IMG/VR virus record: IMGVR_UViG_3300037067_022550
Direction: 5' to 3' (one strand)
Length of the DNA stretch: 64,000 nucleotides
Source: a virus
Each line of letters starts with the position of its first letter. The first letter of the stretch is position 1. The notes under the pieces are model-generated. The model saw only the letters and a list, made by a program, of their open reading frames with translations. It did not search any database and was not told the origin of the DNA. The position numbers were made by a program, and so were the translations under genes. This document shows, piece after piece, positions 2,663 to 56,205 of the stretch.

Positions 2663-3325
2663 TTAAATATTTTTGCCACAACATTTTTTATATTTAATTG
2701 GTTCACCATTTATTTTTTTAGCCCCACAAGGACAAGGATCATTTCTTCCAACCTTAATCTTATTTCTCTCAATTGGTATACTCTTAACACAAAATTCTGT
2801 AATTATTTTCCCTTTAAAATGGTCAAGTTCATGCTGAATTGCTATTGTAACAATCTTATTGTCAACTAAGAACTTTTCATCATCCTTTTCTGTGGGATAA
2901 TTTAAATATATTTTATCTGTTATTAATATGTCCCCATCTATTCTATCATTTTCAATTACTAAATGTTTATATCTGTAAGTATTAAAAAACTGACCAGGAA
3001 ATGATAAACAACCTTCATTGAAAAACAAAAATTCTTCTTCCGCTTCAATAATTTTGGGATTAATTAGGCAAAAGTACTCCTTGCTGTTAAAAAACTCCTT
3101 TTTTAATACTGCAATTGTTTTAGGAATACCTATTTGAATGGCCGCTAACCCAACTCCATTTGGTTCATTATCTAATGTTGATTTGATATTTTCAACGATT
3201 TCTAGGGCTTCCTGGGCTGTTCTAACTGGTTCAGAAACTTGCTTTAAAACATTAATATCTCTAACTATTTTATTGAATCTCCCCACGAATGAATTCTGGG
3301 GATTCCTGATTACTAAGCTACACAT
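2663..3325 (-). CDS. def: peptide deformylase with C-terminal SEC-C metal-binding motif; 5' end overlaps the IS605 right end
   Basis: PDF motifs GVGLAAIQIG, EGCLSFPG and QHELDH. C-terminal DPCPCGAKK...KCCGKN resembles the SEC-C motif. The first 17 codons are encoded by the IS end hairpin sequence. Confidence 0.7.
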   Translation of the reverse strand: MCSLVIRNPQNSFVGRFNKIVRDINVLKQVSEPVRTAQEALEIVENIKSTLDNEPNGVGLAAIQIGIPKTIAVLKKEFFNSKEYFCLINPKIIEAEEEFLFFNEGCLSFPGQFFNTYRYKHLVIENDRIDGDILITDKIYLNYPTEKDDEKFLVDNKIVTIAIQHELDHFKGKIITEFCVKSIPIERNKIKVGRNDPCPCGAKKINGEPIKYKKCCGKNI

Positions 3326-3480
3326 AGTATAGCCTTTCTTTCGAGGCTTATTCCAAGCCCAGCATTGATAACTACCACGGCAGAATTAATATCTCTGTCG
3401 TGATCCGCCCCACAAGCGGAACATACCCAATGCCTTACCTTGAGCCCGCCCAATCCTGTGGGGCCGGTCAAAGCTCCGCA
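3284..3480 (-). ncRNA. putative omega (right-end) guide RNA of TnpB
   Basis: By the architecture of IS200/605 TnpB systems, the omega RNA overlaps the 3' end of tnpB and ends at the RE boundary. Only about 30 nt separate the tnpB stop from the RE hairpin. This is inferred and not seen directly. Confidence 0.3.
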
Positions 3481-4374
3481 GTCCGAACAGGTCATAGTGG
3501 TCTTTCTTGAATTTACCGGAATTATATTCCTACCGCAGATACTGCCCTTGTAGGTTATAAACTTTGCCAACTGTCCCAACCCAGCTTCCGTTACTGACTT
3601 GCCAAAAATTCCTGCTGCCATACCCTTAAAGTTGTCGTCACTGTAGCAAATGGTCTTGTAGTTTTCCACCAGCTTCCTGCTTATCTTATGGTTACGATCC
3701 AGTCTTCTATTAGCTTGCCTTTCCTGCAACCTTGCTGTCAACGCTTTTCTATGTCCTCTTTGAGCTTGAGCAAGGCGTTCTGCCCCTTTATGAAGCTCTC
3801 TAGGATTTTCGATCTTAGTGCCGTTGGACAAGGTTAGCAAGGTATCAAATCCAGGGTCTATTCCAACAGCAGTATTAGTTTCTTTGACTGTGAAAATATG
3901 TATTGTATCTAACCAAAGGCAGAGATACCAACCGGAAGCTTTCTTAACTATTCTACCGCACTTGATTTCTGCATTTGGCAATTCCTGTTTGACGAAGCGA
4001 ACTTTCTTCAATCCAGGAATACTAATTTTACCGTCCTTTGGTGGATTAATTGGATCTGGAAAGGGAATGGAATTGAACTTGTTGTGTCTTCCCTTGAGAT
4101 GTGGTTTCTTGGCTTGCTTTCTAAAACACTTTTTCCAAGCATCATAAACTTGAGATAGAGTTCCCTGAATAGTATGAGAAGGAATGCCTAGTTTCTTTCC
4201 GTGGTCAGCCAGTAAGTTGTGGAATGTCTTCTCAGAAAAGTAGATATTGTCTTTAGCATTAAGTTCTATTTTTTTAAGACCAAAGTTATATACACCCGTT
4301 AAGTTATTAAGCCATCCGTTTAGTGTTTGCTCTTGCTTCTTGGTTGGTCTAAGTTTTAGGGTTCTTACTATCAT
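3313..4374 (-). CDS. tnpB: TnpB (OrfB) RNA-guided nuclease-family protein
   Basis: 353 aa. C-terminal RuvC-III plus zinc ribbon (CSDCGALTG...HWVCSACGADHDRDINSAVVV). N-terminal OrfB helix-turn-helix-like region. Confidence 0.8.
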   Translation of the reverse strand: MIVRTLKLRPTKKQEQTLNGWLNNLTGVYNFGLKKIELNAKDNIYFSEKTFHNLLADHGKKLGIPSHTIQGTLSQVYDAWKKCFRKQAKKPHLKGRHNKFNSIPFPDPINPPKDGKISIPGLKKVRFVKQELPNAEIKCGRIVKKASGWYLCLWLDTIHIFTVKETNTAVGIDPGFDTLLTLSNGTKIENPRELHKGAERLAQAQRGHRKALTARLQERQANRRLDRNHKISRKLVENYKTICYSDDNFKGMAAGIFGKSVTEAGLGQLAKFITYKGSICGRNIIPVNSRKTTMTCSDCGALTGPTGLGGLKVRHWVCSACGADHDRDINSAVVVINAGLGISLERKAILCVA

Positions 4375-25060: not shown

Positions 25061-25687
25061 TTAAAACAAATCTCCGTCAAATTCTTTGTTTTTCTTTTCT
25101 TTTTTGTTTTTAGCTAAAACCAATTCCTTAGTCTTAACAAAACTTTCCAATAATTTCTTTTTATCTCCCCAATCTCTCATACAACCGCAATCAACTAATG
25201 TTTCAAATACATTTTTGTTCAAAGAACGTCCGCTATTATTAGTTATCAAATCTTCTAAATTTTTATATGGTTGTCTACTAATAATTTCTTTTATAACAAC
25301 ATCCCCTAGTCCTTTTAAAACTGAAAGAGGACGCCTAATTCCACCATTTTCAATTGTATAAACATCTTTGCTTAAATTAATGTCATAAGGGAGTAATTCT
25401 ATCCCATATCTTGGTAAAGAATCCTCATATGGTTCTCTTTTTTCTCTTTGTTGCTCTGACATAACAGAAGACAATAATGAACACATAAATTCTATTGTAT
25501 AATGATTTTTAAGCCATGCTGTTTGATAAGCAAGCATAGCATAGGCTGCCGAATGGCTGTTTGATGTATAAATGCCTAAATCATAATCGTTTACAATTTT
25601 ATAGTTGTGTTGATTAGATTTCATGGTTAAATTATAGGCTTCTTCAACACCTAACGGTTTTATTGATTTTATTTTGCACTTTAGCAT
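25061..25687 (-). CDS. dnaE: DNA polymerase III alpha (DnaE) C-terminal fragment with N-terminal C-intein half (43 aa)
   Basis: Own ATG with AAGGAG RBS. MLKCKIKSIK...IYTSN resembles the split DnaE IntC (MIKIATRKYLGK...ASN). It is followed by SHSAAYAMLAYQTAWLKNHY, which matches the DnaE KSHSAAYA motif. Confidence 0.7.
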   Translation of the reverse strand: MLKCKIKSIKPLGVEEAYNLTMKSNQHNYKIVNDYDLGIYTSNSHSAAYAMLAYQTAWLKNHYTIEFMCSLLSSVMSEQQREKREPYEDSLPRYGIELLPYDINLSKDVYTIENGGIRRPLSVLKGLGDVVIKEIISRQPYKNLEDLITNNSGRSLNKNVFETLVDCGCMRDWGDKKKLLESFVKTKELVLAKNKKEKKNKEFDGDLF

Positions 25688-26783
25688 ATTTTCTCCTTAA
25701 AAATAAATCTTTTTTATTAGAATATATCCATTTTAAGAAACTTATACAAGCTTTTCTTCCCCCCAACAAATATAAATTATAATAAATATTACCATTTTTA
25801 TGTATACTATTATGTATGTGAAATTTAAATTTGCTTTTAATATGACTTAAATCTTCTAAAAATTTAACAGATGCACTTGACAACTGTATTTGGTATCTTC
25901 CACTATTACTTCTATAAATACATCCGTCTCCATCTATCAAACCTCTAAAAAATGAATTAATGAATTTTTTAGGAACACAACCATTATACCTTAATACTTT
26001 TGATTTATTCCTTAATACTCCTAATTTTTTTAAGTCCATAGCAATTTTTTTATTAAACACACAAAGCCTAGCCATATCTTTTGCGTTTGGCATGTTTTTT
26101 CTTCTTGTAGAACAGTTTATATGTGTTATTGGATTACTTCCTCCAATTAAATTTCTTATTTTCTTAAGTATATATCCGTCATTTTTTGTTAATTGTATTC
26201 CAAAACCATCATATTTTTTTATAATATAACCGTCTGTCATAATTAAGCCAAATATATATGCTTTTTCAGAAGAATCTATTTTTTTAAAAAAATCTTCTTT
26301 GTAATGTGTTTGTATTTTGGGTTCTCTTCTTTTAATTCCTCTTTTTTTCAAACACGCATATACTGTTTCTTTTCTTTTAAATCCATATTTTTTGGCAATT
26401 TTATTGGCAACTCCACCATTTATATATTCTTTGATAATCTTTTTTTCAATATCATCTGTAATTTTTTTATTCCAAGAGCATTTTATTGGCAATGGAATTT
26501 TGTTTTTTTTATGAATTCTACATATGGCATAATATTTTGCCCCTGTTTTTTTAGATATTTTAGCCAATGAAATATTGTTACGATAAGCGTAATATGCAAG
26601 ATATTTTAAATATCTTTCTCTTTTTAACATCCATTTATTCTCATTAATTATTCTTCTAATTATTCTTTCTGTTAGTTTTGTTTCTTTTTCTATATTTTTC
26701 ATTTCTTCTTGTCTAAAAAACATAGAACGTATTATTTTTTTTGTTTTTTTATCAACATTTATTTTATTATATGCCATTCTCAT
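25644..26783 (-). CDS. free-standing LAGLIDADG homing endonuclease (two motifs) with N-terminal HTH repeats
   Basis: YIFGLIMTDGYI and RGLIDGDGCI motifs. Lies between the two dnaE halves, in a different frame from both. Confidence 0.75.
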   Translation of the reverse strand: MRMAYNKINVDKKTKKIIRSMFFRQEEMKNIEKETKLTERIIRRIINENKWMLKRERYLKYLAYYAYRNNISLAKISKKTGAKYYAICRIHKKNKIPLPIKCSWNKKITDDIEKKIIKEYINGGVANKIAKKYGFKRKETVYACLKKRGIKRREPKIQTHYKEDFFKKIDSSEKAYIFGLIMTDGYIIKKYDGFGIQLTKNDGYILKKIRNLIGGSNPITHINCSTRRKNMPNAKDMARLCVFNKKIAMDLKKLGVLRNKSKVLRYNGCVPKKFINSFFRGLIDGDGCIYRSNSGRYQIQLSSASVKFLEDLSHIKSKFKFHIHNSIHKNGNIYYNLYLLGGRKACISFLKWIYSNKKDLFLRRKYAKVQNKINKTVRC

Positions 26784-26853
26784 TCTGTTTCCTCTTTTAA
26801 TAGTATATATTCAGCAACATATGCTATTATTCAAAAAGAAACAGATAAAACCT

Positions 26854-29541
26854 TTATTTTATATTTTCTTCATATAAAATATTCATGTCTTTTTCAATAA
26901 TTTCGCTAACAGTATGAGCTTTTCCATCTTCACAAATAAATTTATGATTTAAGGTGCATTTAATTATCATTCCGTTTGATAATTCAATTTCATAAACTTC
27001 TTTTTTACCTGTTTTAAAAACTTTAACAACTTCGTCATCTATTGTATTGCCATCAACATAACTGTCTAAAACAACCTTTATATTACTATTACAAAGTTCT
27101 TCTAATGAATATCTTTTTTTATCAATTTTATTAAAAACTTTGGTTGAACCTAGTAAGCATTCATTGAATCCATATCCTCCAAAATACTGACATAGAGAAA
27201 ACACCCTTTCAGCAATATCCTTTTCAACTCCATGGTTAATGCACCCCTTAATAAACTTATCTTTTAATTTCATTATCTTTTCTGGCTCTTTTTTTCCTAT
27301 ACCTTTTCTTAAAGTATCAGCTTCTGATGCACTGAAGCCAGCCATTTTTATTGAAACTAACATTATTTGTTCCTGAAAAATCATATTGCCATAAGTTTTA
27401 CTAAGCAATTCTTTCATTATTGGATGTATATATTCTACTTGCTTTCTGTTATGCTTATAATCACAATAATCTGTATGGATGTCTGCATTAAGCACCCCTG
27501 GTCTATAAAGAGCATTTGCAACTACTATATCATTAAATGTATCTATTCTTAAATCTCCAATTAATTTGGTCATTCCTGTACTTTCAAGTTGGAATACCCC
27601 TCCTGTATCTCCATTAGTTAGCATATCAAAAACTTTCTGATCATTTGGTTCTAATGAATTAATATCAATGTCTTTATTATGCCTCTTTTTTATTAAGTCT
27701 AAACATTGCTCAACAAGAGTTAGAGTTTTTAATGCAAGAAAATCGAACTTTAGTAATCCCAATTCCTCTACTTCTTTAAGGTTATATTGAGTACAAATTA
27801 CATCTTTAGCTAATCTTAGTGGAACGTGTTGAACTACAGGATCTTTGCAAACAATTATTCCTGCAGGATGAACTCCCGCTGCTGAAAGCTTACCTTCTAT
27901 TTTTTTTGCATAACTAAAAACATCTTTATATTTATCAACATATTCTTTCAAGTTGCTAATATATCTGTTTTTTTTGTATGTAGTAAGTTTATCAATTTCA
28001 ATATTTGGACCATTGGGAATTGATTTGCATATCTCATTGGCAAGCTGTAATGTTTTTTCTCCTGATTCCCAATTGCCCTTAAAATCACCCTTCATGTTTT
28101 CAAAATCATTTCCTATATCTAAAACCTTGCAGACTCTCCTAACAGCGTCTTTTGCCTTCAAACTAGTATATGTTCCTATTCTTGTTGTGCATTCAACTCC
28201 ATATTTATGAGTTAAATATTGAAAAACTTGCTCTTGTTTTGTATAATCAAAATCCAAATCAACATCAGGAGGGCTAACTCTATCTTTATTTAAAAATCTT
28301 GAAAAAAGTAAATTGTATTTTACAGGATCTACGTGGGTAATTCCAAGACAATATAAACATAACGAAGCCACACCACTTCCTCTTCCAGGCCCAGTCCTTA
28401 TCCCTTCTCTTTTAGAGTAGGCAATAACATCCCAAAGTATTAAAAAATATTTTGCATATTTAAGACTTACAATAACATCCCATTCTTCTGCTATCCTTTC
28501 CTCATATTCTGGTTTACCTTTTAAACCCCTATTTACCATACCGTCATCAATTAAACTCTTTAAATATACTTGTTCTGATGATTCTCCAGGTGGCAATTTG
28601 AAATCAGGTAACAAATCTTTTTCAATTTCAATAAGATTATCTTCAATTTTATCAGATATAATAATACTATTGCTTAATAACTCTGGAAGATTTTTATATA
28701 CTTTCTCTAATTCTTCAAAAGGTTTAATATAAAAATCACTAGATTCAAAAGAAAACCTCTTTGGATTTTTAATAGTATCTTTAGTTGCTATACTTAAGAG
28801 AACATCTTGAGCTAAATAATCTTCCTTATCAGCATAATGAGAGTCACATGTAGCTACAGGAAGAATGTGCAGTTCCTTAGCTAATTTATATAACTTATGC
28901 ATAACAATTTTAAATTCACTGGTAGTCTTTTCGTCGTTATATTTGTGAACCATTATTTCAACAAAAAAATCATCACCATATATTTCTTTAAACAATAATA
29001 AGTTTTTTCTAGCAGTTTCCATGTCGTTTTTTAATATATAATGAGCTGCCAAACCATTAATACAAGCAGATCCACAAATAATACCGTCTTTATGCTTCTT
29101 TAACAAATCAACATCAATCCTTGGACGACTATAAAACCCCTTTAAATAGGCCACAGAGCTAAGAGCTATTAAATTCTTATAGCCAACCTTATTTTTAGCT
29201 AATAAGGTCACGTGAAGCCTTTTGTCATCTTTATTCTTAATATTTATATCATCAACTAAATATAATTCTGTTCCCAATATTGGCTTAATCTTTTCTTTTA
29301 TCTCTTCTTTGTTGCCATGATGAACTTTTTGTTCTTTACAAGCATTATAGAACCTATATAAACCAGCACAAGTACCATGATCTGTTAACGCAATTGCTCT
29401 AAAGCGGTTTTTCCTAGCAGTGTTAGCCATATCTTCAGGAGAGCAAAAACCATCTAATAGAGAGAAATAACTATGGCAATGAAGAGGGACATAACCTGCC
29501 CATTGTTTATTTACTGTAGATATAGATGTTTCTTCAGACAT
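26854..29541 (-). CDS. dnaE: DNA polymerase III alpha (DnaE) N-terminal fragment ending in N-intein half (101 aa, 26857-27159)
   Basis: PHP domain HCHSYFSLLDG and pol III alpha core. ...YFGGYGFNE|CLLGSTKV... begins a Hint N-terminal block that runs 101 aa to a stop codon. Confidence 0.8.
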   Translation of the reverse strand: MSEETSISTVNKQWAGYVPLHCHSYFSLLDGFCSPEDMANTARKNRFRAIALTDHGTCAGLYRFYNACKEQKVHHGNKEEIKEKIKPILGTELYLVDDINIKNKDDKRLHVTLLAKNKVGYKNLIALSSVAYLKGFYSRPRIDVDLLKKHKDGIICGSACINGLAAHYILKNDMETARKNLLLFKEIYGDDFFVEIMVHKYNDEKTTSEFKIVMHKLYKLAKELHILPVATCDSHYADKEDYLAQDVLLSIATKDTIKNPKRFSFESSDFYIKPFEELEKVYKNLPELLSNSIIISDKIEDNLIEIEKDLLPDFKLPPGESSEQVYLKSLIDDGMVNRGLKGKPEYEERIAEEWDVIVSLKYAKYFLILWDVIAYSKREGIRTGPGRGSGVASLCLYCLGITHVDPVKYNLLFSRFLNKDRVSPPDVDLDFDYTKQEQVFQYLTHKYGVECTTRIGTYTSLKAKDAVRRVCKVLDIGNDFENMKGDFKGNWESGEKTLQLANEICKSIPNGPNIEIDKLTTYKKNRYISNLKEYVDKYKDVFSYAKKIEGKLSAAGVHPAGIIVCKDPVVQHVPLRLAKDVICTQYNLKEVEELGLLKFDFLALKTLTLVEQCLDLIKKRHNKDIDINSLEPNDQKVFDMLTNGDTGGVFQLESTGMTKLIGDLRIDTFNDIVVANALYRPGVLNADIHTDYCDYKHNRKQVEYIHPIMKELLSKTYGNMIFQEQIMLVSIKMAGFSASEADTLRKGIGKKEPEKIMKLKDKFIKGCINHGVEKDIAERVFSLCQYFGGYGFNECLLGSTKVFNKIDKKRYSLEELCNSNIKVVLDSYVDGNTIDDEVVKVFKTGKKEVYEIELSNGMIIKCTLNHKFICEDGKAHTVSEIIEKDMNILYEENIK

Positions 29542-29593: not shown

Positions 29594-30139
29594 TTAACTA
29601 ATTGCATTTTCAATAGCTTCTTTTCTTCTATATGAAGATTTATGTATTACATCTTCAACATACAAAGTAAATTCTTTCCAATTGAATTCATCATTTAAAA
29701 CATTGCTAAACTTTTTCGTTTGATCATTTTGAGACCAAACCAAAAAAGACAAGTTGCCAGGATGTCCAAGTGCTACTCCTTCATAAATAAAAACATTTCT
29801 TCCGTAATTTAGCATATAAACAAAAGATGTCCCATAATCTACAGTAAGAGCTATAGACCTAAGAAAAGAAGTTCCTTCAACAATTACTTCGATTTCTTTA
29901 TAATTGCTAATTACTTTTGCATCTTTAAGTATTTTTGCTATAAAAGACAATTTAGCATAGGTTAAATCAACTTCCATTTTAAAATCTGATAAAGCTTTTT
30001 CTATAGAACTAGAAAACTTACCAATAAATTTATCATGTTTTTCTTTAACTGATTCTAAAACATCTTGATAATCAATTACATTTTGTAATCTATTCATCTT
30101 TTTTTTGTACTCCTTTGCTTTCTGAATTTTTAAATTCAT
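29594..30139 (-). CDS. hypothetical protein
   Basis: 181-aa ORF. Confidence 0.4.
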   Translation of the reverse strand: MNLKIQKAKEYKKKMNRLQNVIDYQDVLESVKEKHDKFIGKFSSSIEKALSDFKMEVDLTYAKLSFIAKILKDAKVISNYKEIEVIVEGTSFLRSIALTVDYGTSFVYMLNYGRNVFIYEGVALGHPGNLSFLVWSQNDQTKKFSNVLNDEFNWKEFTLYVEDVIHKSSYRRKEAIENAIS

Positions 30140-30674
30140 CTCCTCCTTTAAAAAGATGGACAGGGAATTTAAGAGTTGAATTCTTGATAAGAACAGGATT
30201 TTGATAAAATCCTCTTGCTTCTTCTGAATAATATGGCTTAAATATTGGAAAATTATTAATAATTATGTCATCTTCTATTTTTATTTCTGTACCAATTAAA
30301 TTAGTGCTTTCTATATATGGAAAAGGGGCTTCTTCAATTAAACCTATATTATCATAAGGAATAATTACAATTCTTGGAATCAAAATAAAAGCTCTGGTAA
30401 CTTCAACAATATTAATCTCTTTATTGTTTTCAATTTGTCTTTCAAGCTTTTGCTCACTTTCACAAAAACCAAACTCGCATTTTGGTTGATTTTTCTTATC
30501 AAACATATACATAAGACGCTCTAATGAAACATTGCCAATAAGATTTTGTTCTCCTTTTTCGTCAACAACAATATTATGTGTAGATCCACCTTTTTTAAGA
30601 ACAATAGAATATCCTTTATCTATATTAATTTTATCAATCATTTCTCCATATGGTGCTGAAAAAGTTTTGTTCAT
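30090..30674 (-). CDS. hypothetical protein
   Basis: 194-aa ORF. Confidence 0.4.
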   Translation of the reverse strand: MNKTFSAPYGEMIDKINIDKGYSIVLKKGGSTHNIVVDEKGEQNLIGNVSLERLMYMFDKKNQPKCEFGFCESEQKLERQIENNKEINIVEVTRAFILIPRIVIIPYDNIGLIEEAPFPYIESTNLIGTEIKIEDDIIINNFPIFKPYYSEEARGFYQNPVLIKNSTLKFPVHLFKGGDEFKNSESKGVQKKDE

Positions 30675-30828
30675 AATGTTTTCTCCTTATTTATTATTAA
30701 TTTTATTATCACTTCATAAAACTATTATTTTTCTATTTGCAACCTACATTATACAACAAAAAAATATTTGCAAGGGTTTTTAAAATAAAAAAAGAATTAT
30801 ATAATTAAGTTAAGTAAAACGAAATATT

Positions 30829-31767
30829 TTGATAAGGAGATATATGCCTAATATAATACAACTTTTAATCAATTTATTCAGAAATATAAATAAAAAAGAA
30901 GAAGATTTAATACCACAAGGCACTAACACACCTTCAGTTCAAATTATTGTTCCTGCACCAATTACTCTCCCAGTATTAACGGCTGGTAAGAAAAGGGGAC
31001 TATTTCTCGGGATTAATGACTATCCTGGCTCATCAAATGACTTGAGGGGTTGCTTAAATGATGATATTGAATGGATTTCATTGCTAAAAGATTGTTATAA
31101 ACTTGATGAGATTACTAATTTAACAAACAGCCAATGTACTATAGCAAATGTTAAAAAATATATGACGGAAATAATTAATGTTTCTATGCCCAACGACGTA
31201 TTAATTATTCAATATAGTGGACACGGATCTTATAGAGCAGACATGCATAATGATGAAATTGATGGTAAAGACGAAGCCATTGTTATGTATGATGGTTTTA
31301 TAATAGATGATGAAATTGAAGAAATGTTATCAAAAATAAAAAATGGCGTAAGAACAACTATTATACTTGATTCATGCTTTAGCGGTAGCGGAACTAGATC
31401 ATTTAACTTTAATGATGAAAGCTTTTATAGAGTAGGAAGATTCATGCCTCCAAAGGATAATGGTAAAATAATGGGTCTAAAAATAAAAAGCAGGGTATTT
31501 AGATCTATTGGAAAAACAGAAGAAGAAATGAATCATATTTTAATTTCTGGTTGTTCTGATTCAGAAGTAAGCTATGATGCTGAATTTAATGGAAAATATT
31601 ATGGTGCCATGAGTTATTATGCCACAAAAGTTTTAAGAGAAAATCCCATGATTACATATACTGAATTTTATAAAAAGTTAAGAGAAAAACTACCTAGTTC
31701 CATGTACCCTCAAACTCCCCAACTTGAAGGAAAATCTGAGTTTAAGAACATAATAATGTTTAGTTAA
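30829..31767 (+). CDS. caspase-family (peptidase C14, metacaspase-like) protein
   Basis: AAGGAG RBS. KRGLFLGINDYPGSSNDLRGCLND, catalytic His in IQYSGHGSY, and catalytic Cys in ILDSCFSGSG. Confidence 0.6.
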   Translation: MIRRYMPNIIQLLINLFRNINKKEEDLIPQGTNTPSVQIIVPAPITLPVLTAGKKRGLFLGINDYPGSSNDLRGCLNDDIEWISLLKDCYKLDEITNLTNSQCTIANVKKYMTEIINVSMPNDVLIIQYSGHGSYRADMHNDEIDGKDEAIVMYDGFIIDDEIEEMLSKIKNGVRTTIILDSCFSGSGTRSFNFNDESFYRVGRFMPPKDNGKIMGLKIKSRVFRSIGKTEEEMNHILISGCSDSEVSYDAEFNGKYYGAMSYYATKVLRENPMITYTEFYKKLREKLPSSMYPQTPQLEGKSEFKNIIMFS

Positions 31768-32327
31768 TCCAACATTTTTGCCATATCTGTAAGTTCTTTT
31801 GAAATTTTTAAAAAACTGTTTTTAGAATTAACTTTGCCAATGTTTCTGATCTTTATTCTAGACACCCTTGCCATATGTAGAGTCGGTTTCCAATCATATT
31901 CTATCGTATTGGTATCAATAATATCTGTTAAAACAATTTCTTTAATACCTGATTGAATAATTGTTTTCATACACTCGTTACATGGTAAATACTTGCGTTC
32001 AGAATAAACATACATTGTAGAACCGTTCAAATCTCTCGTAGCATTAAGAATGGCATTTATTTCGCAATGTATGACATATGGATATTTTGTTTTATATCTT
32101 TCTTTAGAATCTTTTGACCAAGGGTAATTATCATCATCTCCTAATGGCATTCCAGAATATCCCATAGATATAAGTCTACGATTAATAGGATTAACAATAG
32201 CTGCTCCATGTTTAGTAGATGGGTCTTTAGATCTCATAGATGCTAAAGCTGCAATTCCCATAAATAATTCATCCCAATTCAATTTTGCTTCAATTATTTT
32301 CATTTTTTCTCCTATCTTGAGGGGCAT
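31764..32327 (-). CDS. dCMP deaminase (cytidine/deoxycytidylate deaminase family)
   Basis: HCEINAI zinc-binding motif and PCNECMKTIIQSGI. Confidence 0.75.
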   Translation of the reverse strand: MPLKIGEKMKIIEAKLNWDELFMGIAALASMRSKDPSTKHGAAIVNPINRRLISMGYSGMPLGDDDNYPWSKDSKERYKTKYPYVIHCEINAILNATRDLNGSTMYVYSERKYLPCNECMKTIIQSGIKEIVLTDIIDTNTIEYDWKPTLHMARVSRIKIRNIGKVNSKNSFLKISKELTDMAKMLD

Positions 32328-32673
32328 CTATATTGTCTAACCTAATAGCTTCTGCTAAAATTAACAAGGCGTTTCTAACTCTAGGAGATTGCCATCCTCC
32401 AATTAAAGGCATTCTAAATCTCATAGATAAATGATAATCTTCCTCATCAGGTTTACTCAAAATAGTTATCCAACCGTCACCATCCTGAGTAAATTGAACA
32501 GAAATATTACCGTTATAACTATCATCTTCAAACCTAGAATACGAATTTTGAGTTTCTATAGTATCTATCCAAAAAGGTTTTTCAAGTAATTTTTTAACAA
32601 TTTTTGCAATCTTTTTATTTTCTGATTTTTCATCCATATAACCATCCAAGTTCTTTGTTCTTCTATATAACAC
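32290..32673 (-). CDS. hypothetical protein
   Basis: 127-aa ORF. Confidence 0.35.
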   Translation of the reverse strand: MLYRRTKNLDGYMDEKSENKKIAKIVKKLLEKPFWIDTIETQNSYSRFEDDSYNGNISVQFTQDGDGWITILSKPDEEDYHLSMRFRMPLIGGWQSPRVRNALLILAEAIRLDNIDAPQDRRKNENN

Positions 32674-32811: not shown

Positions 32812-33879
32812 ATGGCAAAAAACATGGAAACAAAAGATTATATAAATGAATTAAAAAAGATATTTTCACAAGAAAACGAAAAAGTAGTTATTTTTATAGG
32901 TCATCCAGACCCGGATTCTATTGGTTCTGGCATGGGAATTAAATTGCTATTGCAAAACATAAGTAAGTCTGATTGCACCATTGTTTATTCTGGGGAAATT
33001 TCTCATCCTCAAAATAGAACATTAGTCAATGTTCTCAATATAGATTTAATAGAGCAAGAAAAATTCTTTCTCGATAATAAAAATGAAATCTGTAAAAAAT
33101 ATTCAAAATTTGTATGGGTAGATAGCGTTCCGAGAGAAAAATTTTCAGAAGAAATAAAGCCATCATTAGTTATTGATCACCATAAAACTAATTATGACAA
33201 AAATGGTTCTATTGTTGATATAAGAAATGTTGGAGCTTGTTGCTCTATCGTTTGGGAATACATTAAAAATTCCGGTTATAAACTATCTCCAGATAAAGAA
33301 TCTGACACAAAAATAGCTATTGCAATGCTTTTCGGAATTAAAACAGATACTGGAGATTTAATTTCAGATAACACAACTGATCTAGACTTTATAGCATATC
33401 AAGATTTAGCAGTTATAGTTAAAGAAAACAATATATCAGATATTATTAATTATAAATATCCTGCTTACTTTTTTGAAGTTAGATCAAGATTAGATGAAGA
33501 AGGTAATTCAGTTATAAAAGATTCTTTTTTTATTGGAGGAATAGAATTTATCTCCCCAGTAAGACGAGATTGTTTGCCAATGCTAGCTGATGAAAGGGTT
33601 AGGATGGAAGGCATTTCAACATCCATTTTGTATGCCATTGTTGGAGACAATCTAGAGGTAAGTATTAGAAGCAATAATCCGGCTATTGATGTAAATAAAT
33701 TGTGTAAAGATATTTTTGGAGAAGACTATGCTGGTGGAAGAACAGGAGCAGGAGCAGCAAGAGTTCCATTAGGTATTTTAAGTGCTAGTACCATGTCAGA
33801 CGACGATAAGAAAATTATATGGGGAGCATATCGTTCAATTATACTACATAAAATATTACATTATTGTGGCGGTCATTAA
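32812..33879 (+). CDS. DHH-family phosphoesterase (NrnA-like nanoRNase/pAp phosphatase)
   Basis: GHPDPDSIGSG, VIDHHKT (DHH), and C-terminal GGH, which is DHHA1-like. Confidence 0.6.
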   Translation: MAKNMETKDYINELKKIFSQENEKVVIFIGHPDPDSIGSGMGIKLLLQNISKSDCTIVYSGEISHPQNRTLVNVLNIDLIEQEKFFLDNKNEICKKYSKFVWVDSVPREKFSEEIKPSLVIDHHKTNYDKNGSIVDIRNVGACCSIVWEYIKNSGYKLSPDKESDTKIAIAMLFGIKTDTGDLISDNTTDLDFIAYQDLAVIVKENNISDIINYKYPAYFFEVRSRLDEEGNSVIKDSFFIGGIEFISPVRRDCLPMLADERVRMEGISTSILYAIVGDNLEVSIRSNNPAIDVNKLCKDIFGEDYAGGRTGAGAARVPLGILSASTMSDDDKKIIWGAYRSIILHKILHYCGGH

Positions 33880-34406
33880 GGAGTCAAGGAGCTTAAACTA
33901 GATTCTGAACTTTGACTGCTTGGGCTACTTAAACTTGACTCTGAACTTTGACTTGATACTGAGCTTATACTTGAACTGCTTGCACTAGACTGAGAAACTA
34001 TAGAACTTGAACTTCCAGAACTTGCAGAACTTATACTACTTGATGAAAGACTTTGCGAACTAGAACTTGCCGAACTTTGAGTTGTTCTAGAACTACTAGA
34101 AGAACTTGACCCTGTAGATTCAGAACTTGAACTAGAAGACAACATTCTTCCTCCAGAAACTTCATCCATGATAACTACAGCCCGTGCTTTAAGTTCTTCT
34201 GTTACATCATAATTTGGAGCAGGTAGATTAAGAACTATTTCTGCAGGAACAGCAACACCAGTACCAAAAACCTTTTGCCCTGTTGAACATCTTATATAGT
34301 AATTTGGATACCCGGAATGACTTTGATTAACAACAGCATTTTCAACAGTAAAATCAATATTATAATTTATATCATAAATTTCATCATAAACTTGAATTGT
34401 TGCCAT
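33876..34406 (-). CDS. protein with serine-rich low-complexity C-terminal tail
   Basis: The C-terminal roughly 90 aa are almost pure S/T/Q repeats (SSSSSESTGSSSSSSSRTTQSS...). Confidence 0.4.
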   Translation of the reverse strand: MATIQVYDEIYDINYNIDFTVENAVVNQSHSGYPNYYIRCSTGQKVFGTGVAVPAEIVLNLPAPNYDVTEELKARAVVIMDEVSGGRMLSSSSSSESTGSSSSSSSRTTQSSASSSSQSLSSSSISSASSGSSSSIVSQSSASSSSISSVSSQSSESSLSSPSSQSSESSLSSLTP

Positions 34407-34552
34407 ATTTTATTCTCCTTTTAAGAATATTTACATATTATTCTTACTTCATTTAAATTTAACCTTTTTATTTGGTTATATTTATTAAATATTTCTTTTT
34501 ATTGAAATATTATTAACTAAGAATATGGCAAAATCCTTTATTTAATAAAAAG

Positions 34553-34624
34553 AGCACCTTGAGGGAATCGAACCCCCGTCTGAAAGTTTGCAGCTTTCTG
34601 CCTGAACCACTCGACCAAAGGTGC
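34553..34624 (-). tRNA. tRNA-Cys (GCA)
   Basis: Cloverleaf fits. Anticodon stem GAAAG/CTTTC with loop CTGCAAA, and T-arm GGGGGTTCGATTCCC. Confidence 0.65.
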
Positions 34625-34631
34625 TTGAAAA

Positions 34632-34710
34632 TGGTGGGGGAGAAGGGAGTTGAACCCATATTTTCGGATTTTCAGTCCGTTTCCGATTGACCGCGTTGGA
34701 ACACTCCCCC
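34632..34710 (-). tRNA. tRNA-Phe (GAA), somewhat irregular D-arm
   Basis: Acceptor GGGGGAG/CTCCCCC, anticodon loop CTGAAAA, T-loop TTCAACT, and CCA encoded. Confidence 0.55.
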
Positions 34711-34724
34711 ATTACAAGTAAAAC

Positions 34725-34800
34725 TGGTAGTGTCGGTGGGATTCAAACCCACAATTTCAAGCTTCGGAGGCTTGTGCCCTATTCATTAGGCTACAACACT
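34725..34800 (-). tRNA. tRNA-Arg (CCG)
   Basis: Anticodon stem CAAGC/GCTTG with loop CTCCGAA; T-arm GTGGGTTTGAATCCCAC. Confidence 0.65.
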
Positions 34801-34803
34801 ATT

Positions 34804-34884
34804 GGTAGCCCTGACAGGATTTGAACCTGCATTTTCATTTCCATTATGCACTTGACGGGTAGAAACCGCCGCCACTACAGGGCT
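34804..34884 (-). tRNA. tRNA, anticodon undetermined (irregular anticodon/variable region)
   Basis: Acceptor AGCCCTG/CAGGGCT, T-arm GCAGGTTCAAATCCTGT and CCA are clear. No clean 5-7-5 anticodon arm was found. Confidence 0.45.
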
Positions 34885-34891
34885 ATAAAAA

Positions 34892-34982
34892 TGGTGGCGT
34901 CGGATGGATTTGAACCACCAGCGTTTAGCCATAGGCACCTGATTTACAGTCAGGCGGTTTCAGCCAATTCACCCACGACGCC
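34892..34982 (-). tRNA. tRNA-Tyr (GTA), class II long variable arm
   Basis: Anticodon stem CCTGA/TCAGG with loop CTGTAAA; long variable arm; T-arm GGTGGTTCAAATCCATC. Confidence 0.65.
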
Positions 34983-40591: not shown

Positions 40592-41848
40592 TTATTGGGG
40601 CATCATAACAGCCCAATTATATGAACGATTTAATAAGTTAGAAGCAACCTTATTGCAATCTCCTATTGTTGTCTTTTCAATACCGCTGATAATATCTTCA
40701 ACCGTTTTGTTATTATCGAATAATAAAGATTTCATAACTGTGCTAGCCATTCCAAACGATGTTTCTGTATTTCTAAATATTTGAGACAACAAATCAGTTT
40801 TTGCACATTCAAAAACTTTATTGGCTAAACCGTTATGTTTAATTTTGTGTAATTCGTTTTCACATTCTTCAATAAATAAATTAACGTTTTTAGGTGAAGT
40901 ATTGCCATAAATCATAGGAAGAATACAATTAGGATAAGATATATCTGTTACTTGAGAACCTACAGAATAACATAAACCCAATTGCTCTCTTATTCTAGAG
41001 AATAGAATTGAATACATACCACCTCCAATACACTTAAAAAGTATCTTTTGAGCAAAATAATAAAGATCATTTGCCCCTAACCCTAATAGTGGCAAACAAA
41101 CCTGAGACTGAGTTATTTTATTTCTTTTGACAAGTAATTTAATTTTCTTGTTGTTTATAAAATCCTTTTTCCAAAGCTTATTATCACAAATGTTTTTAGT
41201 TCCATGTTTTAAAAAAGAATGCTGTTTTGGGAAATTTAATTTAATGTATTCTATTATATCTTCTGTTTTTGTTGGTCCACAAAAAACAAATAATATATTT
41301 TCATAACAATTGTTTTTATGGAGATATTGAATGATTTTGTCTCTATTAATCCCTTTTATGGTTTTAACAGTGCCAATTATAGAATGACCCTTTTCTTCTG
41401 TGAACATTTTGTTTCCAATGTTTTCATAAAAGAAAGACGTATGGTCATCATTATATCCTTTTCTTTCTTCAATAATAACATTTCTTTCTTTCTCAATCTC
41501 TTCTACTGGAAACAGAGAATTAAAAAACATATCTGTCATTAAACTAATTGCATTTTTTATATTTTTGGCTGGAAAAGTACAATGATATAAAACTTCTGTA
41601 TTATCAGTATAAGCATTTTGACTTGCTCCAATAGATGCAAATTCTTCATTAATTTGTTTCCAGTCTCTATTTTTTGTACCTTTAAAAAACATATGCTCTG
41701 CAAAATGAGAAATTCCGTAAATATCGGGGGTTTCAAAATTGCTTCCACAAATAGTGCAAATTCCCATAAAATTTATATTGCTATTATTATAAATGTTTGC
41801 TACTCTTAATCCATTGACATTTGATATTTCTATGTTTCCGTTTTTCAT
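40592..41848 (-). CDS. M16-family (pitrilysin/insulinase-like) zinc peptidase
   Basis: Inverted zinc motif HFAEHMFFKGT (HxxEH). Confidence 0.6.
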   Translation of the reverse strand: MKNGNIEISNVNGLRVANIYNNSNINFMGICTICGSNFETPDIYGISHFAEHMFFKGTKNRDWKQINEEFASIGASQNAYTDNTEVLYHCTFPAKNIKNAISLMTDMFFNSLFPVEEIEKERNVIIEERKGYNDDHTSFFYENIGNKMFTEEKGHSIIGTVKTIKGINRDKIIQYLHKNNCYENILFVFCGPTKTEDIIEYIKLNFPKQHSFLKHGTKNICDNKLWKKDFINNKKIKLLVKRNKITQSQVCLPLLGLGANDLYYFAQKILFKCIGGGMYSILFSRIREQLGLCYSVGSQVTDISYPNCILPMIYGNTSPKNVNLFIEECENELHKIKHNGLANKVFECAKTDLLSQIFRNTETSFGMASTVMKSLLFDNNKTVEDIISGIEKTTIGDCNKVASNLLNRSYNWAVMMPQ

Positions 41849-45002: not shown

Positions 45003-45077
45003 TGGTGGACCCAGGGAGAATCGAACTCCCACTAAAAGCTTGCAAAGCTCCCGTGCTACCATTATCACTATGAGCCC
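45003..45077 (-). tRNA. tRNA-Ala (UGC), solitary
   Basis: G3:U70 pair, anticodon loop TTTGCAA, T-arm GGGAGTTCGATTCTCCC, and CCA encoded. Confidence 0.65.
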
Positions 45078-53941: not shown

Positions 53942-54018
53942 TGGTGGAACCAGTGGAAGTTGAATCCACACTTACAGGGTGCAGACCTGTCGTGCTATCC
54001 GTTGAACACTATGGCCCC
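53942..54018 (-). tRNA. tRNA-Ala (UGC) with G3:U70; unusual C at position 33
   Basis: Acceptor GGGGCCA/TGGTTCC, anticodon stem ACAGG/CCTGT with loop TCTGCAC, and T-arm GTGGATTCAACTTCCAC. Confidence 0.55.
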
Positions 54019-54028
54019 AAAATTAAAC

Positions 54029-54105
54029 TGGAGCGGGAAACGGGAGTCGAACCCGTACCTGAACTTAGGCAAAGTCCCATGCTAACCATTGAACACCATT
54101 CCCGC
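54029..54105 (-). tRNA. tRNA-Gly (GCC)
   Basis: Anticodon loop TTGCCTA; T-arm ACGGGTTCGACTCCCGT. Confidence 0.6.
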
Positions 54106-54114
54106 ACTAAAAAT

Positions 54115-54197
54115 TGGTGGGCGGAGTGGGACTCGAACCCACGACGCTTACGCAACAGGGTGTAGACCTGTCCTCCTAGCCACTAGAGTACCCGCCC
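54115..54197 (-). tRNA. tRNA, anticodon UAC (Val?) with C33 and an extended variable region
   Basis: Acceptor GGGCGGG/CCCGCCC, anticodon arm ACAGG-TCTACAC-CCTGT, variable region about 12 nt, and T-arm GTGGGTTCGAGTCCCAC. Confidence 0.45.
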
Positions 54198-54250
54198 AAA
54201 AATTGTTTTATCATTATGTATTATACAAAAAAACATTTATTTCTTCATGA

Positions 54251-54324
54251 AGCCCAAGGAGGGATTTGAACCCCCAACATTCTCAGTACGAAAGAGATGT
54301 TCTACCAATTAGAACTACTTGGGC
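54251..54324 (-). tRNA. tRNA-Thr (CGU)
   Basis: D-arm GTTC/GAAC, anticodon loop TTCGTAC, T-arm GGGGGTTCAAATCCCTC; CCA not encoded. Confidence 0.55.
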
Positions 54325-54331
54325 AAAAAAA

Positions 54332-54406
54332 TGGAGCCGCAAATTGGATTTGAACCAATGACCCCGATCTTACCAAGATCGTATTCTGCCCCTGAACTAT
54401 TGCGGC
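54332..54406 (-). tRNA. tRNA-Thr (GGU)
   Basis: Anticodon stem CGATC/GATCG with loop TTGGTAA. Confidence 0.6.
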
Positions 54407-54432
54407 ATTAAATTATTTCATTTCAATTTGTA

Positions 54433-54469
54433 GCTGAAGTCTGGAATTGAACCCACAAGCATCTTCAGC
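54433..54469 (-). other. tRNA-like minihelix / truncated tRNA remnant (acceptor-like 7-bp stem + T-arm-like loop)
   Basis: GCTGAAG-(TCTGGAATTGAACCCACAAGCAT)-CTTCAGC; too short for a full tRNA. Confidence 0.3.
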
Positions 54470-54474
54470 AAAAT

Positions 54475-54549
54475 TGGTACTCCCATCGGGACTCGAACCC
54501 GCTTCACCAGATTAAAAGTCTGGTACTTCACCATAAAAGCTTTGGGAGC
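54475..54549 (-). tRNA. tRNA-Lys (UUU)
   Basis: Anticodon stem CCAGA/TCTGG with loop CTTTTAA; G1:U72. Confidence 0.6.
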
Positions 54550-54555
54550 AAAAAA

Positions 54556-54631
54556 TGGTGATTGCGGGGGGACTTGAACCCCCAGCGTCCAGGGTAAGAA
54601 CCTGGCACTCTGCCAATTGAGTTACGCAACC
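54556..54631 (-). tRNA. tRNA-Lys (CUU)
   Basis: Anticodon stem CCAGG/CCTGG with loop TTCTTAC; T-arm GGGGGTTCAAGTCCCCC. Confidence 0.65.
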
Positions 54632-54636
54632 GAAAA

Positions 54637-54714
54637 TGGTGGGTGCTGTGGGATTTTGACCCACGACTCCCAGGGTAAAAACCTGGTACTCTGTTCATGC
54701 TGAGTTAAGCACCC
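54637..54714 (-). tRNA. tRNA-Lys (UUU), paralog of preceding gene
   Basis: Same anticodon stem, with loop TTTTTAC. Confidence 0.65.
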
Positions 54715-54721
54715 GAAAAAT

Positions 54722-54795
54722 TGGAGCTGGCGGCGGGTACGAGACCGCATAATCCTCATTACAAGAGAGGCACATAACCTTTCTGTCACGCCAGC
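54722..54795 (-). tRNA. tRNA-Thr (UGU), irregular T-arm
   Basis: Perfect acceptor GCTGGCG/CGCCAGC; anticodon loop CTTGTAA; T-loop region non-canonical. Confidence 0.45.
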
Positions 54796-54799
54796 ATAA

Positions 54800-55429
54800 T
54801 TAATAACTTTTTTCACTTTGATATCTAAGTTTTCTATAAAATCTTCCGTTTCCTCTGTTCTTTCCTTTATATGTTGATGTTTGCATATCACAATTTCCGC
54901 ATATTAATCTTAAATTTAAAATACTCCAATTAGTAGAATTACCGTCTATGTGGTCTAACACTAAAGGAACTTCTTTTCCCATCCATTCTGTTGTTCCGCA
55001 TATTGTGCATTTTCCACCTTTAGTTTCTTTTAAATATCTTCTTGCAACTTTAGAATTAAAAATAGGATTTAAAAAAGCATTTCCTTTTGATTCTATTGCT
55101 TTCTTTTTTAAACTCCACTCAAAATCCTTTTGACATTTAATAGTACAATATTTTCTATTGGAAAATAATAATTTTTTACCACAAAATAAACAATTAGATG
55201 GTTCTTCTCCGTGTCTTCTTACTCCTTTGTTATTAAATGAAGCAGCACAAGAATGATTACAAAAAGTTAAACGTCTTTTTTTATATGATAAAACAGAATT
55301 GCAGAATTTACATATTTTGGGATTTGAAATATAATTTTCTCTAAACTTTTTAAATCTTTCTTGATTTTTAATATTAGATTTTTCTGATCCAATCTTACCA
55401 GCTTCCGAACAACTCATTCCTTTTCTCAT
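54800..55429 (-). CDS. HNH homing endonuclease embedded in tRNA array
   Basis: CTICGTTEWMGKEVPLVLDHIDGNSTNWSILNLRLICGNCD plus several CxxC. Confidence 0.6.
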   Translation of the reverse strand: MRKGMSCSEAGKIGSEKSNIKNQERFKKFRENYISNPKICKFCNSVLSYKKRRLTFCNHSCAASFNNKGVRRHGEEPSNCLFCGKKLLFSNRKYCTIKCQKDFEWSLKKKAIESKGNAFLNPIFNSKVARRYLKETKGGKCTICGTTEWMGKEVPLVLDHIDGNSTNWSILNLRLICGNCDMQTSTYKGKNRGNGRFYRKLRYQSEKSY

Positions 55430-55518
55430 TTTTGAACTCCTTATCAGTTGTTAATATACAACTGCTATATGGTTCAAAAATGATTTGTGGCTAACCTGCT
55501 TTTATTTTTCAACAAAAA

Positions 55519-55592
55519 TGGAGCGTCCCAACGGATTTGAACCGTCTCCCAGACCTTGGAAGGGTCTAATGCTACCGTTACACCAGGGACGC
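55519..55592 (-). tRNA. tRNA-Gly (UCC)
   Basis: Anticodon stem AGACC/GGTCT with loop CTTCCAA. Confidence 0.6.
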
Positions 55593-55618
55593 ATCTTTTC
55601 ATTATACAACAAAATAAT

Positions 55619-55697
55619 TGGAGCACCTAATGGGATTTGAACCCATACCATCAGCTTGGAAGGCTGTCATGCTAGATCCGTTGAACACCATAGGTGC
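55619..55697 (-). tRNA. tRNA-Gly (UCC), second copy with longer D-region
   Basis: Anticodon stem CAGC/GCTG with loop CTTCCAA; T-arm ATGGGTTCAAATCCCAT. Confidence 0.5.
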
Positions 55698-55706
55698 ATT
55701 TAAAAA

Positions 55707-55791
55707 TGGTAGGGGGGCGGTATTTATCCAATTATGTGCATTTAAAGCCTCTTGGTTATGAGCCAAGCGATAAAAGCTTTACCTACCCCGC
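55707..55791 (-). tRNA. aberrant tRNA-like element with CAU anticodon arm (possible pseudo-tRNA)
   Basis: Clean anticodon arm CTTGG-CTCATAA-CCAAG, but no canonical T-arm and an acceptor with a 5' extension. Confidence 0.3.
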
Positions 55792-55956
55792 TATAAACTT
55801 TTCAGGGATTTCACGAAATGTTCCACTGTTGGCGACCCGACCGCCATCTTCCTGGTGACCCAGGCGTGCTCCATACACCACGTAGCGTCTATCCTTTTTA
55901 GGTTACTGCCCTTTAGTTCGTCAACTTTCAGGCACACCTCTTGCAAGATTTCAAAT

Positions 55957-56033
55957 TGGTAACGGGGGCCGGATTTGAACCGGCGACCTACAGGTTATGA
56001 GCCTGCCGAGCTACCAGGCTGCTCCACCCCGTA
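55957..56033 (-). tRNA. initiator tRNA-fMet (CAU)
   Basis: Near-identity to bacterial tRNA-fMet (GGGGTGGAGCAGCCTGGTAGCTCG...CTCATAACC...GGTTCAAATCCGGCCCCCG) with a 1:72 mismatch. Confidence 0.8.
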
Positions 56034-56041
56034 ATATTAAA

Positions 56042-56118
56042 TGGTAGCAGGGATGGGACTTGAACCCACAACCTACGGGTTATGAGCCCGTGAAGCTTCC
56101 TATTGCTAGCACCCTGCA
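56042..56118 (-). tRNA. tRNA-Met or tRNA-Ile2 (CAU)
   Basis: Anticodon stem CGGG/CCCG with loop CTCATAA; T-arm GTGGGTTCAAGTCCCAT. Confidence 0.6.
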
Positions 56119-56129
56119 AATCAGTAAAA

Positions 56130-56205
56130 TGGTGCCGGGGAGGGGAATTGAACCCCTGATCTTTCGGGTATGAGCCGAACGTCTTGCACACTCGACCACC
56201 CCGGC
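56130..56205 (-). tRNA. tRNA-Met or tRNA-Ile2 (CAU)
   Basis: Anticodon stem TTCGG/CCGAA with loop CTCATAC; T-arm AGGGGTTCAATTCCCCT. Confidence 0.6.

Follow-up and report, generated by a model that had tools for sequence, protein, structure and literature searches.

We describe a metacaspase-type C14 peptidase gene carried by a virus, in IMG/VR record IMGVR_UViG_3300037067_022550 (a stretch of 64,000 nucleotides, hereafter the window). Judged by its sequence, the protein is a member of the metacaspase branch of family C14, prokaryotic and type-I-like, with p20 and p10 halves on a single chain. It is probably an active enzyme, specific for Arg/Lys and not an Asp-specific caspase, and it begins with an amphipathic peptide and a flexible linker that are characteristic of viral copies. 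The combined proposal, that an active Arg/Lys metacaspase, probably tethered to the membrane, acts in the infected cell, is put forward tentatively, as a reading that falls a little short of probable. The gene is as follows, and residue numbers count from its ATG:

30844..31767, plus strand: metacaspase-type C14 peptidase gene, 307 amino acids (aa) plus stop, identified by PF00656, a PDB match to Yca1, and AlphaFold2 (AF2) and Foldseek

The initial annotation had assigned a caspase-family peptidase to open reading frame (ORF) 30829-31767 on the strength of the motifs KRGLFLGINDYPG, YSGHGSY, and LDSCFSGSG, all of which are found there. The assignment was borne out by profile search and alignment. 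PF00656 (Peptidase_C14) matched with an E value of 3.7e-24 and 86.1 bits, against a gathering cutoff of 21.4, over profile positions 3-227 of 233. The His/Cys dyad is intact, and is invariant in 39 out of 39 sequences when the window protein is aligned with 38 metagenomic relatives (40-66% identity). The active-site and pocket positions are:

31222..31224, plus strand: catalytic His127 (YSGHG), invariant in 39/39, aligned with SGHG of Yca1
31375..31377, plus strand: catalytic Cys178 (DSCFSG), invariant, aligned with the Cys mutated to Ala in PDB 4f6p
31051..31062, plus strand: Cys70 to Asp73 (GCLND), first half of the acidic S1 pocket, invariant, equivalent to TbMCA2 Cys92/Asp95
31369..31371, plus strand: Asp176 (DSC), S1-pocket Asp, invariant in phage and cellular groups, equivalent to TbMCA2 Asp211

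Across the 39 sequences, the invariant residues are H127, C178, C70, D73, S125, D176, D137, E144, D155, D156, and D245; D137, E144, D155, and D156 make up an acidic cluster, and D245 lies at the start of p10. The S1 pocket of TbMCA2 is formed by Cys92/Asp95/Ser156/Asp211, and metacaspases cleave after Arg/Lys. Alignment coordinates, read together with the literature, identify C70/D73/S125/D176 as the counterparts of the TbMCA2 pocket residues. Dyad and pocket residues are conserved equally in the phage and cellular groups. Since an acidic S1 pocket of this type is that of metacaspases, specificity for Arg/Lys rather than Asp is expected.

The best sequence match in PDB is yeast Yca1 (E 8e-29), followed by Candida, Arabidopsis MC4/MC9, Geobacter GSU0716, and T. 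brucei MCA2 proteins. Residues 236-302 align with the p10 region of Yca1. Type-I-like metacaspases are defined by a p10 located C-terminal to p20, at an interdomain distance of 66 aa or less (PMC6426788); here, p10 follows p20 across a loop of ca. 45 aa. Because a p10-like half is present, the protein is classed as a metacaspase and not as an orthocaspase, which by the quoted definition lacks p10. A eukaryotic type I prodomain (Pro-rich or with an LSD1-type zinc finger) was not found, and the N-terminal region has no Pfam match.

The AF2 model (mean predicted local distance difference test score, pLDDT, 77.8; predicted template modelling score, pTM, 0.73) divides this chain into a well-predicted domain and a disordered loop within it:

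30991..31764, plus strand: caspase-fold catalytic domain, residues 50-307 (p20-like half, loop, p10-like half), from AF2 and Foldseek
31378..31512, plus strand: disordered inter-subunit loop, residues 179-223, with Arg199 (RFMPP), pLDDT below 50, directly after the catalytic Cys

Outside the loop, block means of pLDDT in the catalytic domain are 76-98, mostly above 90. When the predicted structure was submitted to Foldseek, AtMC4 came first (E 2e-16), then AtMC9, GSU0716, Yca1, and TbMCA2, with paracaspase MALT1 and then caspases at lower ranks (probability 1.00). Arg199, conserved at 85-99% in all three groups of sequences, is a candidate autoprocessing site. From the pocket, the acidic cluster (D133-E144/D155/D156), and Arg199 we infer that the enzyme would depend on Ca2+, cleave after Arg/Lys, and process itself.

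The ORF first annotated is present, on the plus strand, and only its start was moved. The true start is almost certainly the ATG at 30844, with the TTG at 30829 merely the first possible in-frame start codon, because a Shine-Dalgarno sequence lies 4 nt ahead of the ATG and because the same gene call, of 307 aa, was made for an identical public protein (P0001). The signals in front of the gene are:

30834..30839, plus strand: Shine-Dalgarno AAGGAG, 4 nt before ATG 30844, read from the sequence
30800..30805, plus strand: perfect TATAAT hexamer, a candidate -10 element of the gene's own promoter, ca. 38 nt before the start

The hexamer is identical in the relative L002 and is not conserved in another relative, L004. 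A consensus promoter and terminator scan of the region returned promoter-like sites no more numerous than expected by chance. The GC content of the gene (0.304) and that of its third codon positions (0.205) both match the surrounding genome, and the gene is therefore no recent import.

Two elements precede the catalytic domain:

30844..30882, plus strand: amphipathic aromatic/Leu-rich peptide MPNIIQLLINLFR, residues 1-13, helix at 2-13 in the AF2 model
30883..30990, plus strand: flexible linker of low complexity, residues 14-49, with GKK as its last residues next to the domain, coil in the AF2 model

The hydrophobic moment of the window peptide is 0.73. The pLDDT of the linker is below 50 at residues 17-23, with block means of ca. 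49-73 elsewhere; linkers of the family contain 22% Thr, 11% Ser, 9% Asn, and 8% Pro. Within the clade of the window protein, an extension of ca. 20-59 aa is present in 37 out of 39 aligned sequences. Cellular copies, in contrast, begin at the domain (M-K-K-A-L-C-V-G-I-N-D-Y-P-G), and nearly all of the seemingly longer cellular ORFs have a Met 2-5 residues ahead of it. When the nearest upstream in-frame ATG was conservatively taken as the start, extensions of at least 15 aa were found in 27 of the 57 viral and metagenome loci, versus two of the 80 cellular loci (Fisher p 1e-10).

The peptides themselves have a distinct composition. Phe and Trp account for 13.9% of their residues, versus 4.9% in the N-termini of phage proteins encoded nearby, and their hydrophobic moment is above that of background N-termini (p 1.4e-5). 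Of the unique extensions, 32% contain the motif [FLIMVW][FLW]G, versus 7 ± 3% of shuffles. Many peptides end in ...LFG(G), often in ...KRLFGG; examples are MSWLSEFFKRLFGGG, MCMSWLKKLFGGG, and MKKIISFVKSFFGG. The membrane-targeting sequence of E. coli MinD is KGFLKRLFGG, likewise a short amphipathic Phe/Leu/Lys-rich helix; it is located at the C-terminus of MinD and not at the N-terminus as in the phage proteins, and the likeness is one of sequence only. In the small-phage clade (L012-L086), and in P0003, P0005, and P0008, the N-terminus reads MC[WF]KK…, with Cys2 conserved and two Cys residues in some proteins; no lipobox context was found around Cys2. The extension is best regarded as a putative targeting device, most likely an in-plane membrane anchor of the MinD kind.

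The metacaspase family comprises 885 database proteins at E ≤ 1e-3. An alignment-based scan located relatives on 91 IMG/VR viral contigs of 2-476 kb and was needed for this purpose, as a single-sequence scan of IMG/VR gave no match. Bacterial and archaeal genomes in GTDB, isolates included, contain at least 478 loci. Out of 50,697 GenBank phage records, one, an uncultured 485 kb phage (LR745208.1), has a homolog; no member was found in the cultured phages of GenBank. On a rough UPGMA (unweighted pair group method with arithmetic mean) tree built on p-distances, on which clade statements are approximate, the window protein groups with all top metagenome matches and with two IMG/VR contigs (161 and 476 kb).

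Two lineages of huge phages carry the gene in conserved surroundings. In lineage A (the window and L001-L004), the order is DnaE, two small ORFs, caspase on the opposite strand, and dCMP deaminase, and it is kept at 48% identity. In lineage B (L005/L007, L008, L033, and L167-L169, with huge-phage contigs of up to 525 kb), the order is NAD-ligase, FtsH-like, NAPRTase, FEN, SIS, caspase, sigma factor, and RuvB-like; a T4-type RNA ligase is also found at L168 and L169. The L167 contig (ENA k141_1203199) is labelled 'MAG: Synergistaceae bacterium' and has the order LigA, FtsH-like, NAPRTase, FEN, SIS, caspase; we regard it as a contig that belongs to a phage and was probably mis-binned.

We propose the following sequence of events. 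During infection, the huge phage would use the start signals of the gene itself to produce a single-chain metacaspase competent for catalysis, encoded in the replication and nucleotide-metabolism region of its genome. The domain would have descended from stand-alone bacterial metacaspases, which usually lie beside a large alpha/beta-hydrolase-CHAT protein; the phage versions would have lost this partner and gained an N-terminal aromatic, amphipathic helix and a Thr/Ser/Pro-rich linker of ca. 35 residues. With the peptide as its anchor, the protease would be kept on the inner face of the membrane and could there cut host or phage proteins after Arg/Lys and so contribute to the takeover or dismantling of the cell. 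Both the tethering and the biological role are what we infer. The surrounding replication genes suggest takeover or counter-defence in huge phages, and the lysis-like context described below suggests an envelope or lysis role in small phages. A bolder version would see here an unrecognised class of effectors, namely proteases with MinD-like anchors that several phage lineages took from bacterial metacaspase/CHAT systems and re-targeted to cut membrane-proximal host proteins (defence, division, or envelope anchors), and that became a lysis-cassette component in small phages; taken as a whole, this version is speculative and on balance unlikely.

Several observations weigh against a membrane-tethered takeover protease. 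The MinD-like motif ends in Gly, and this residue is missing from the window peptide MPNIIQLLINLFR (…LINLFRN). An extension is absent from about half of the IMG/VR copies and from the sole GenBank phage copy (LR745208.1). Other readings of the peptide are a degron, an N-terminal region that inhibits the enzyme itself, as in TbMCA2, and a signal for capsid packaging or for another compartment. A shared targeting signal would be expected on other proteins of the window, and a search of the window for proteins with the same N-terminal peptide and linker found none. Transmembrane (TM) and lysis genes were searched for near the window caspase, and none were found; an envelope context is therefore provided by a different phage clade only. 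The approximate nature of the clades counts here as well. Finally, there is no capsid, portal, terminase, tail, or other virion gene in the 64 kb window, which we accordingly take to be a replication region.

The phage clade with an envelope context is that of small phages, represented by 28-29 IMG/VR loci that form an all-viral group on the UPGMA tree. In these phages, the gene follows tail-fibre genes and lies among genes for small proteins with 1-4 TM segments, a DUF5675/Tlde1-like protein, and a signal-peptide protein; at several loci, portal and Mu-F head genes are directly downstream. DUF5675 has been proposed to be a C82-like lysin in a 2026 preprint, and for this reason the cluster looks like a lysis cassette. 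The protease could then be a lysis-associated enzyme, acting late and at the membrane as a part or a timer of lysis, and cleaving holin/antiholin, spanin-like, or host envelope-anchoring proteins. The small-phage copies also have an N-terminal aromatic/basic peptide. Lysis timing, which the initial annotation had named beside an anti-defence protease and a toxin, gains indirect support from this sister clade. However, the neighbours of the gene in both huge-phage lineages, the window included, are replication, nucleotide-metabolism, and transcription genes; no TM or lysin genes lie close by, and the holin and lysin identities in small phages are themselves predicted. As an account of the window gene, a lysis function is possible and rather unlikely.

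The cellular relatives are found in other company. At 34 of 80 cellular loci inspected (L087-L166), the metacaspase is accompanied by an alpha/beta-hydrolase-CHAT protein of ca. 1100 aa (e.g., L164, 8836-12186), almost always directly downstream and on the same strand, which combines an LCAT/PGAP1-like domain with a C-terminal CHAT domain. A TPR-S protein is near the metacaspase at eight of the 80 loci, mostly upstream. The metacaspase and hydrolase-CHAT pair looks like a conserved two-protease cellular system. Such contexts resemble those of conflict systems, and type IV Thoeris is known to use caspase-like effectors. The phage gene could thus be a weapon, an abortive-infection or superinfection-exclusion toxin directed against competing phages or mobile elements, like other defence genes that huge phages have captured; a partial match to the PADLOC 'caspase' model (36 bits, positions 6-130 of 453) would be in line with this. 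However, the phage copies are unaccompanied by genes for a sensor or partner, and the score under the NCBIfam caspase_w_EACC1 model is 20 bits, where the cutoff is 140. The synteny is stable and lies in core replication regions, not in a defence island of variable content. A role of this kind is quite unlikely.

The initial annotation had suggested that the neighbours at 29594-30674 and 32290-32673 might resemble gasdermin or NACHT proteins. Searches of Pfam, PADLOC, PHROG, and NCBIfam gave them no match to gasdermin, NACHT, or other partner families, and their lengths of 115-194 aa fall short of a NACHT protein; on these database searches, the idea of a gasdermin, NACHT, or TIR partner was rejected. 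Among known anti-phage caspase-like systems, there was no full-length match to a protease model, and no partner (TIR, gasdermin, NACHT/STAND, Cas7-11, or EACC1) was found near the gene.

The protease might instead process the phage's own proteins, in maturation or regulation, as has been suggested for host metacaspases in some giant eukaryotic virus infections. Maturation proteases are common in viruses, the literature on giant viruses and host metacaspases suggests cleavage of viral proteins, and the gene is stably conserved in phage lineages. Against this, the huge-phage gene does not adjoin head or virion genes, tailed phages normally use prohead proteases of the HK97, T4, or ClpP type, and no substrate motif was identified. 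We consider this explanation improbable.

Another possibility is that the window belongs to a reduced cellular genome or a megaplasmid, and that its metacaspase is an ordinary bacterial one. The absence of virion genes noted above would fit, as would the presence of cell-like genes (a major-vault-protein homolog and an M16 peptidase). The rest of the window speaks for a phage, as initially annotated. The relevant features are:

34552-34982, 45003-45077, and 53942-56205: 18 clustered tRNA genes, with Met (3), Lys (3), Gly (3), Thr (2), and Ala (2) in multiple copies
25061-29541, minus strand: interrupted DnaE (pol III alpha), with an 895-aa piece ending in an intein fragment
3313-4374, minus strand: TnpB/IS200-605-type transposase-like gene (phrog_506, E 1e-70)

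Behind the 895-aa piece of DnaE come an ORF for a LAGLIDADG endonuclease (25644-26783) and, as a piece of its own, the HHH_6 C-terminal part (25061-25687); this layout is repeated in the relative L004. A gene similar to the transposase-like one (OrfB_IS605/Cas12f-like) is present at the lineage B locus L168. The GC content of the window is 29-30%, and most genes lie on one strand. They include genes for RecA/UvsX, SbcCD, primase, DNA methylase, dCMP deaminase, DHH phosphoesterase, and several HNH endonucleases, and many of the proteins have PHROG matches. Among the phage-collection matches listed for the RNA ligase, the best are from jumbo phages of 310-485 kb (44-50% identity), and the metacaspase identical to that of the window (P0001) is encoded on a 264 kb JGI contig. 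No ribosomal or other housekeeping genes were seen in the window. The clade relatives are on IMG/VR viral contigs, and the extension is typical of viral copies. When 24 kb of the window was compared with reference phages by megablast, there was no match, and the window DnaE is at most 36% identical to that of any reference phage; the lineage is thus without a close reference. We conclude, on evidence that is indirect, that the window very probably comes from a phage, and a cellular origin is very improbable. A huge phage is taken to have a genome of at least 200 kb with phage hallmark genes; the replication, tRNA, and homing-endonuclease content of the window is like that of jumbo phages, and the 264 kb contig would agree with such a size. 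That the protein has no catalytic activity and titrates a host factor as a decoy or scaffold, as the initial annotation had entertained and as the pseudo-orthocaspases known in bacteria would allow, is hardly credible, since His127, Cys178, and all pocket residues are invariant in the 39 relatives and across phage groups.

Transcription of the region around the gene appears to be divergent. The promoter-like element facing away from the metacaspase gene is:

30747..30755, minus strand: TGTATAATG, an extended -10-like element of the divergent minus-strand operon, in a block kept in L002 and L004

The operon it would serve extends on the minus strand from ORF 30090-30674 through DnaE. The extended -10 motif is over-represented in the window (53 matches, versus 33 ± 5.5 expected) and often precedes minus-strand genes, which suggests that much of the region is served by host sigma-70-type promoters. 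The reverse complement of TGTATAAT occurs throughout the window (e.g., at 30747-30755, 6838, 17708, 25049, and 55600), often upstream of minus-strand genes. The conserved upstream block CATTATACA was considered as a promoter of the caspase gene and rejected; it is the reverse complement of the extended -10 sequence TGTATAAT and, because the latter recurs before minus-strand genes, was assigned to the divergent operon. A second conserved upstream block, CAAGGRTTTTT, showed no enrichment.

Comparison with the sister phage L002 revealed a block of reduced identity around the catalytic domain:

30982..32300: island divergent from L002, comprising the caspase catalytic domain and dCMP deaminase, with its left edge at the junction of linker and domain

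DNA identity to L002 is mostly 88-98% to the left of ca. 30981, and 55-80% from the start of the domain to the end of the caspase gene. At the protein level, identity is 59-70% in the caspase catalytic domain and 62% in dCMP deaminase, versus 93-99% in the flanking proteins. Between its divergent caspase and dCMP deaminase genes, L002 has an insertion, a DUF723 gene of the homing-endonuclease-like kind. Diversifying selection on the protease was set aside as the cause of the drop in identity, as the island also covers dCMP deaminase. Gene conversion associated with homing is a simpler explanation, since the island includes dCMP deaminase and flanks the DUF723 gene of L002, and the sequences point to it. 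The position of the island boundary implies that the module of peptide and linker and the catalytic domain are separately exchangeable.

Three other genes of the window were noted. A second protease, an M16 (insulinase-like) peptidase with both domains, is encoded at 40592-41848 on the minus strand. A 176-aa protein (33876-34406, minus strand), 99% identical in L002, has a Ser-rich low-complexity C-terminal half of ca. 100 aa. An 810-aa vault-protein homolog (57591-60023, minus strand) contains Pfam MVP_shoulder (82 bits) and Vault_3 domains and matches eukaryotic major vault protein in PDB (E 4e-12), with residues 454-744 of the query corresponding to 458-761 of the vault protein; of possible relevance to it is a 2026 preprint about TIR-like NADases and 'the RNA vault' (10.64898/2026.05.01.722283).

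In eukaryotes, proteases of the caspase family have a central part in cell death and immunity; in bacteria, they serve as effectors of anti-phage systems. Here, it is a virus and not a cell that carries such a protease, and the gene is conserved in two huge-phage lineages and one small-phage lineage. If the protease is tethered to the membrane and cleaves host proteins, it would give phages a new way to achieve takeover, counter-defence, or lysis control by proteolysis, and it would be a prokaryotic parallel to the metacaspases of giant viruses. The metacaspase family is well known, as are members encoded by giant eukaryotic viruses. Phage-linked metacaspases have received passing mentions only in the literature, and the word 'caspase' is absent from the major papers on huge and jumbo phages that were consulted and from a paper on NAD+ in jumbo phages. 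Little is known of them because no cultured phage in GenBank carries a member. The phage-specific extension, the huge-phage synteny, and the placement in what look like lysis cassettes of small phages appear to be undescribed in the literature searched.

Among known systems, the bacterial defence effectors of the caspase-like kind (the type IV Thoeris caspase, gasdermin-activating proteases, TPR-CHAT/Craspase, and the EACC1-associated caspase) share with the phage protein the clan CD protease fold, which they put to use in phage-host conflict; unlike them, the window gene has no TIR, gasdermin, NACHT, CHAT, or EACC1 gene nearby. In a viral structure library with almost no phage entries, Foldseek placed metacaspases of giant eukaryotic viruses on top. 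The Nucleocytoviricota proteins are also virus-encoded and have the C14 metacaspase fold, but their hosts are eukaryotic, they represent separate acquisitions, and their identity over the structural alignment is 13-27%.

Type I metacaspases (Yca1, PDB 4f6o, and TbMCA2) have in common with the phage protein the SGHG/DSC dyad, the S1 pocket, the acidic cluster after His, and a single chain of p20, a short loop (ca. 45 aa), and p10. An N-terminal region is present in them as well, and takes part in regulation or targeting; in the phage protein, however, a 13-residue helix and a linker stand in place of the Pro/Gln-rich or zinc-finger prodomain, the gene is phage-encoded, and identity over the structure is only ca. 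25%. Stand-alone bacterial metacaspases such as GSU0716 (PDB 3bij) match the phage protein in the size of the catalytic domain, at 35-44% identity, and share with it the dyad, the pocket, Arg185, Arg199, and the C-terminal QxPQLEG motif. The phage copy differs from them in having an N-terminal extension and in lacking the alpha/beta-hydrolase-CHAT partner. Stand-alone bacterial metacaspases are the likely evolutionary source of the phage enzyme.

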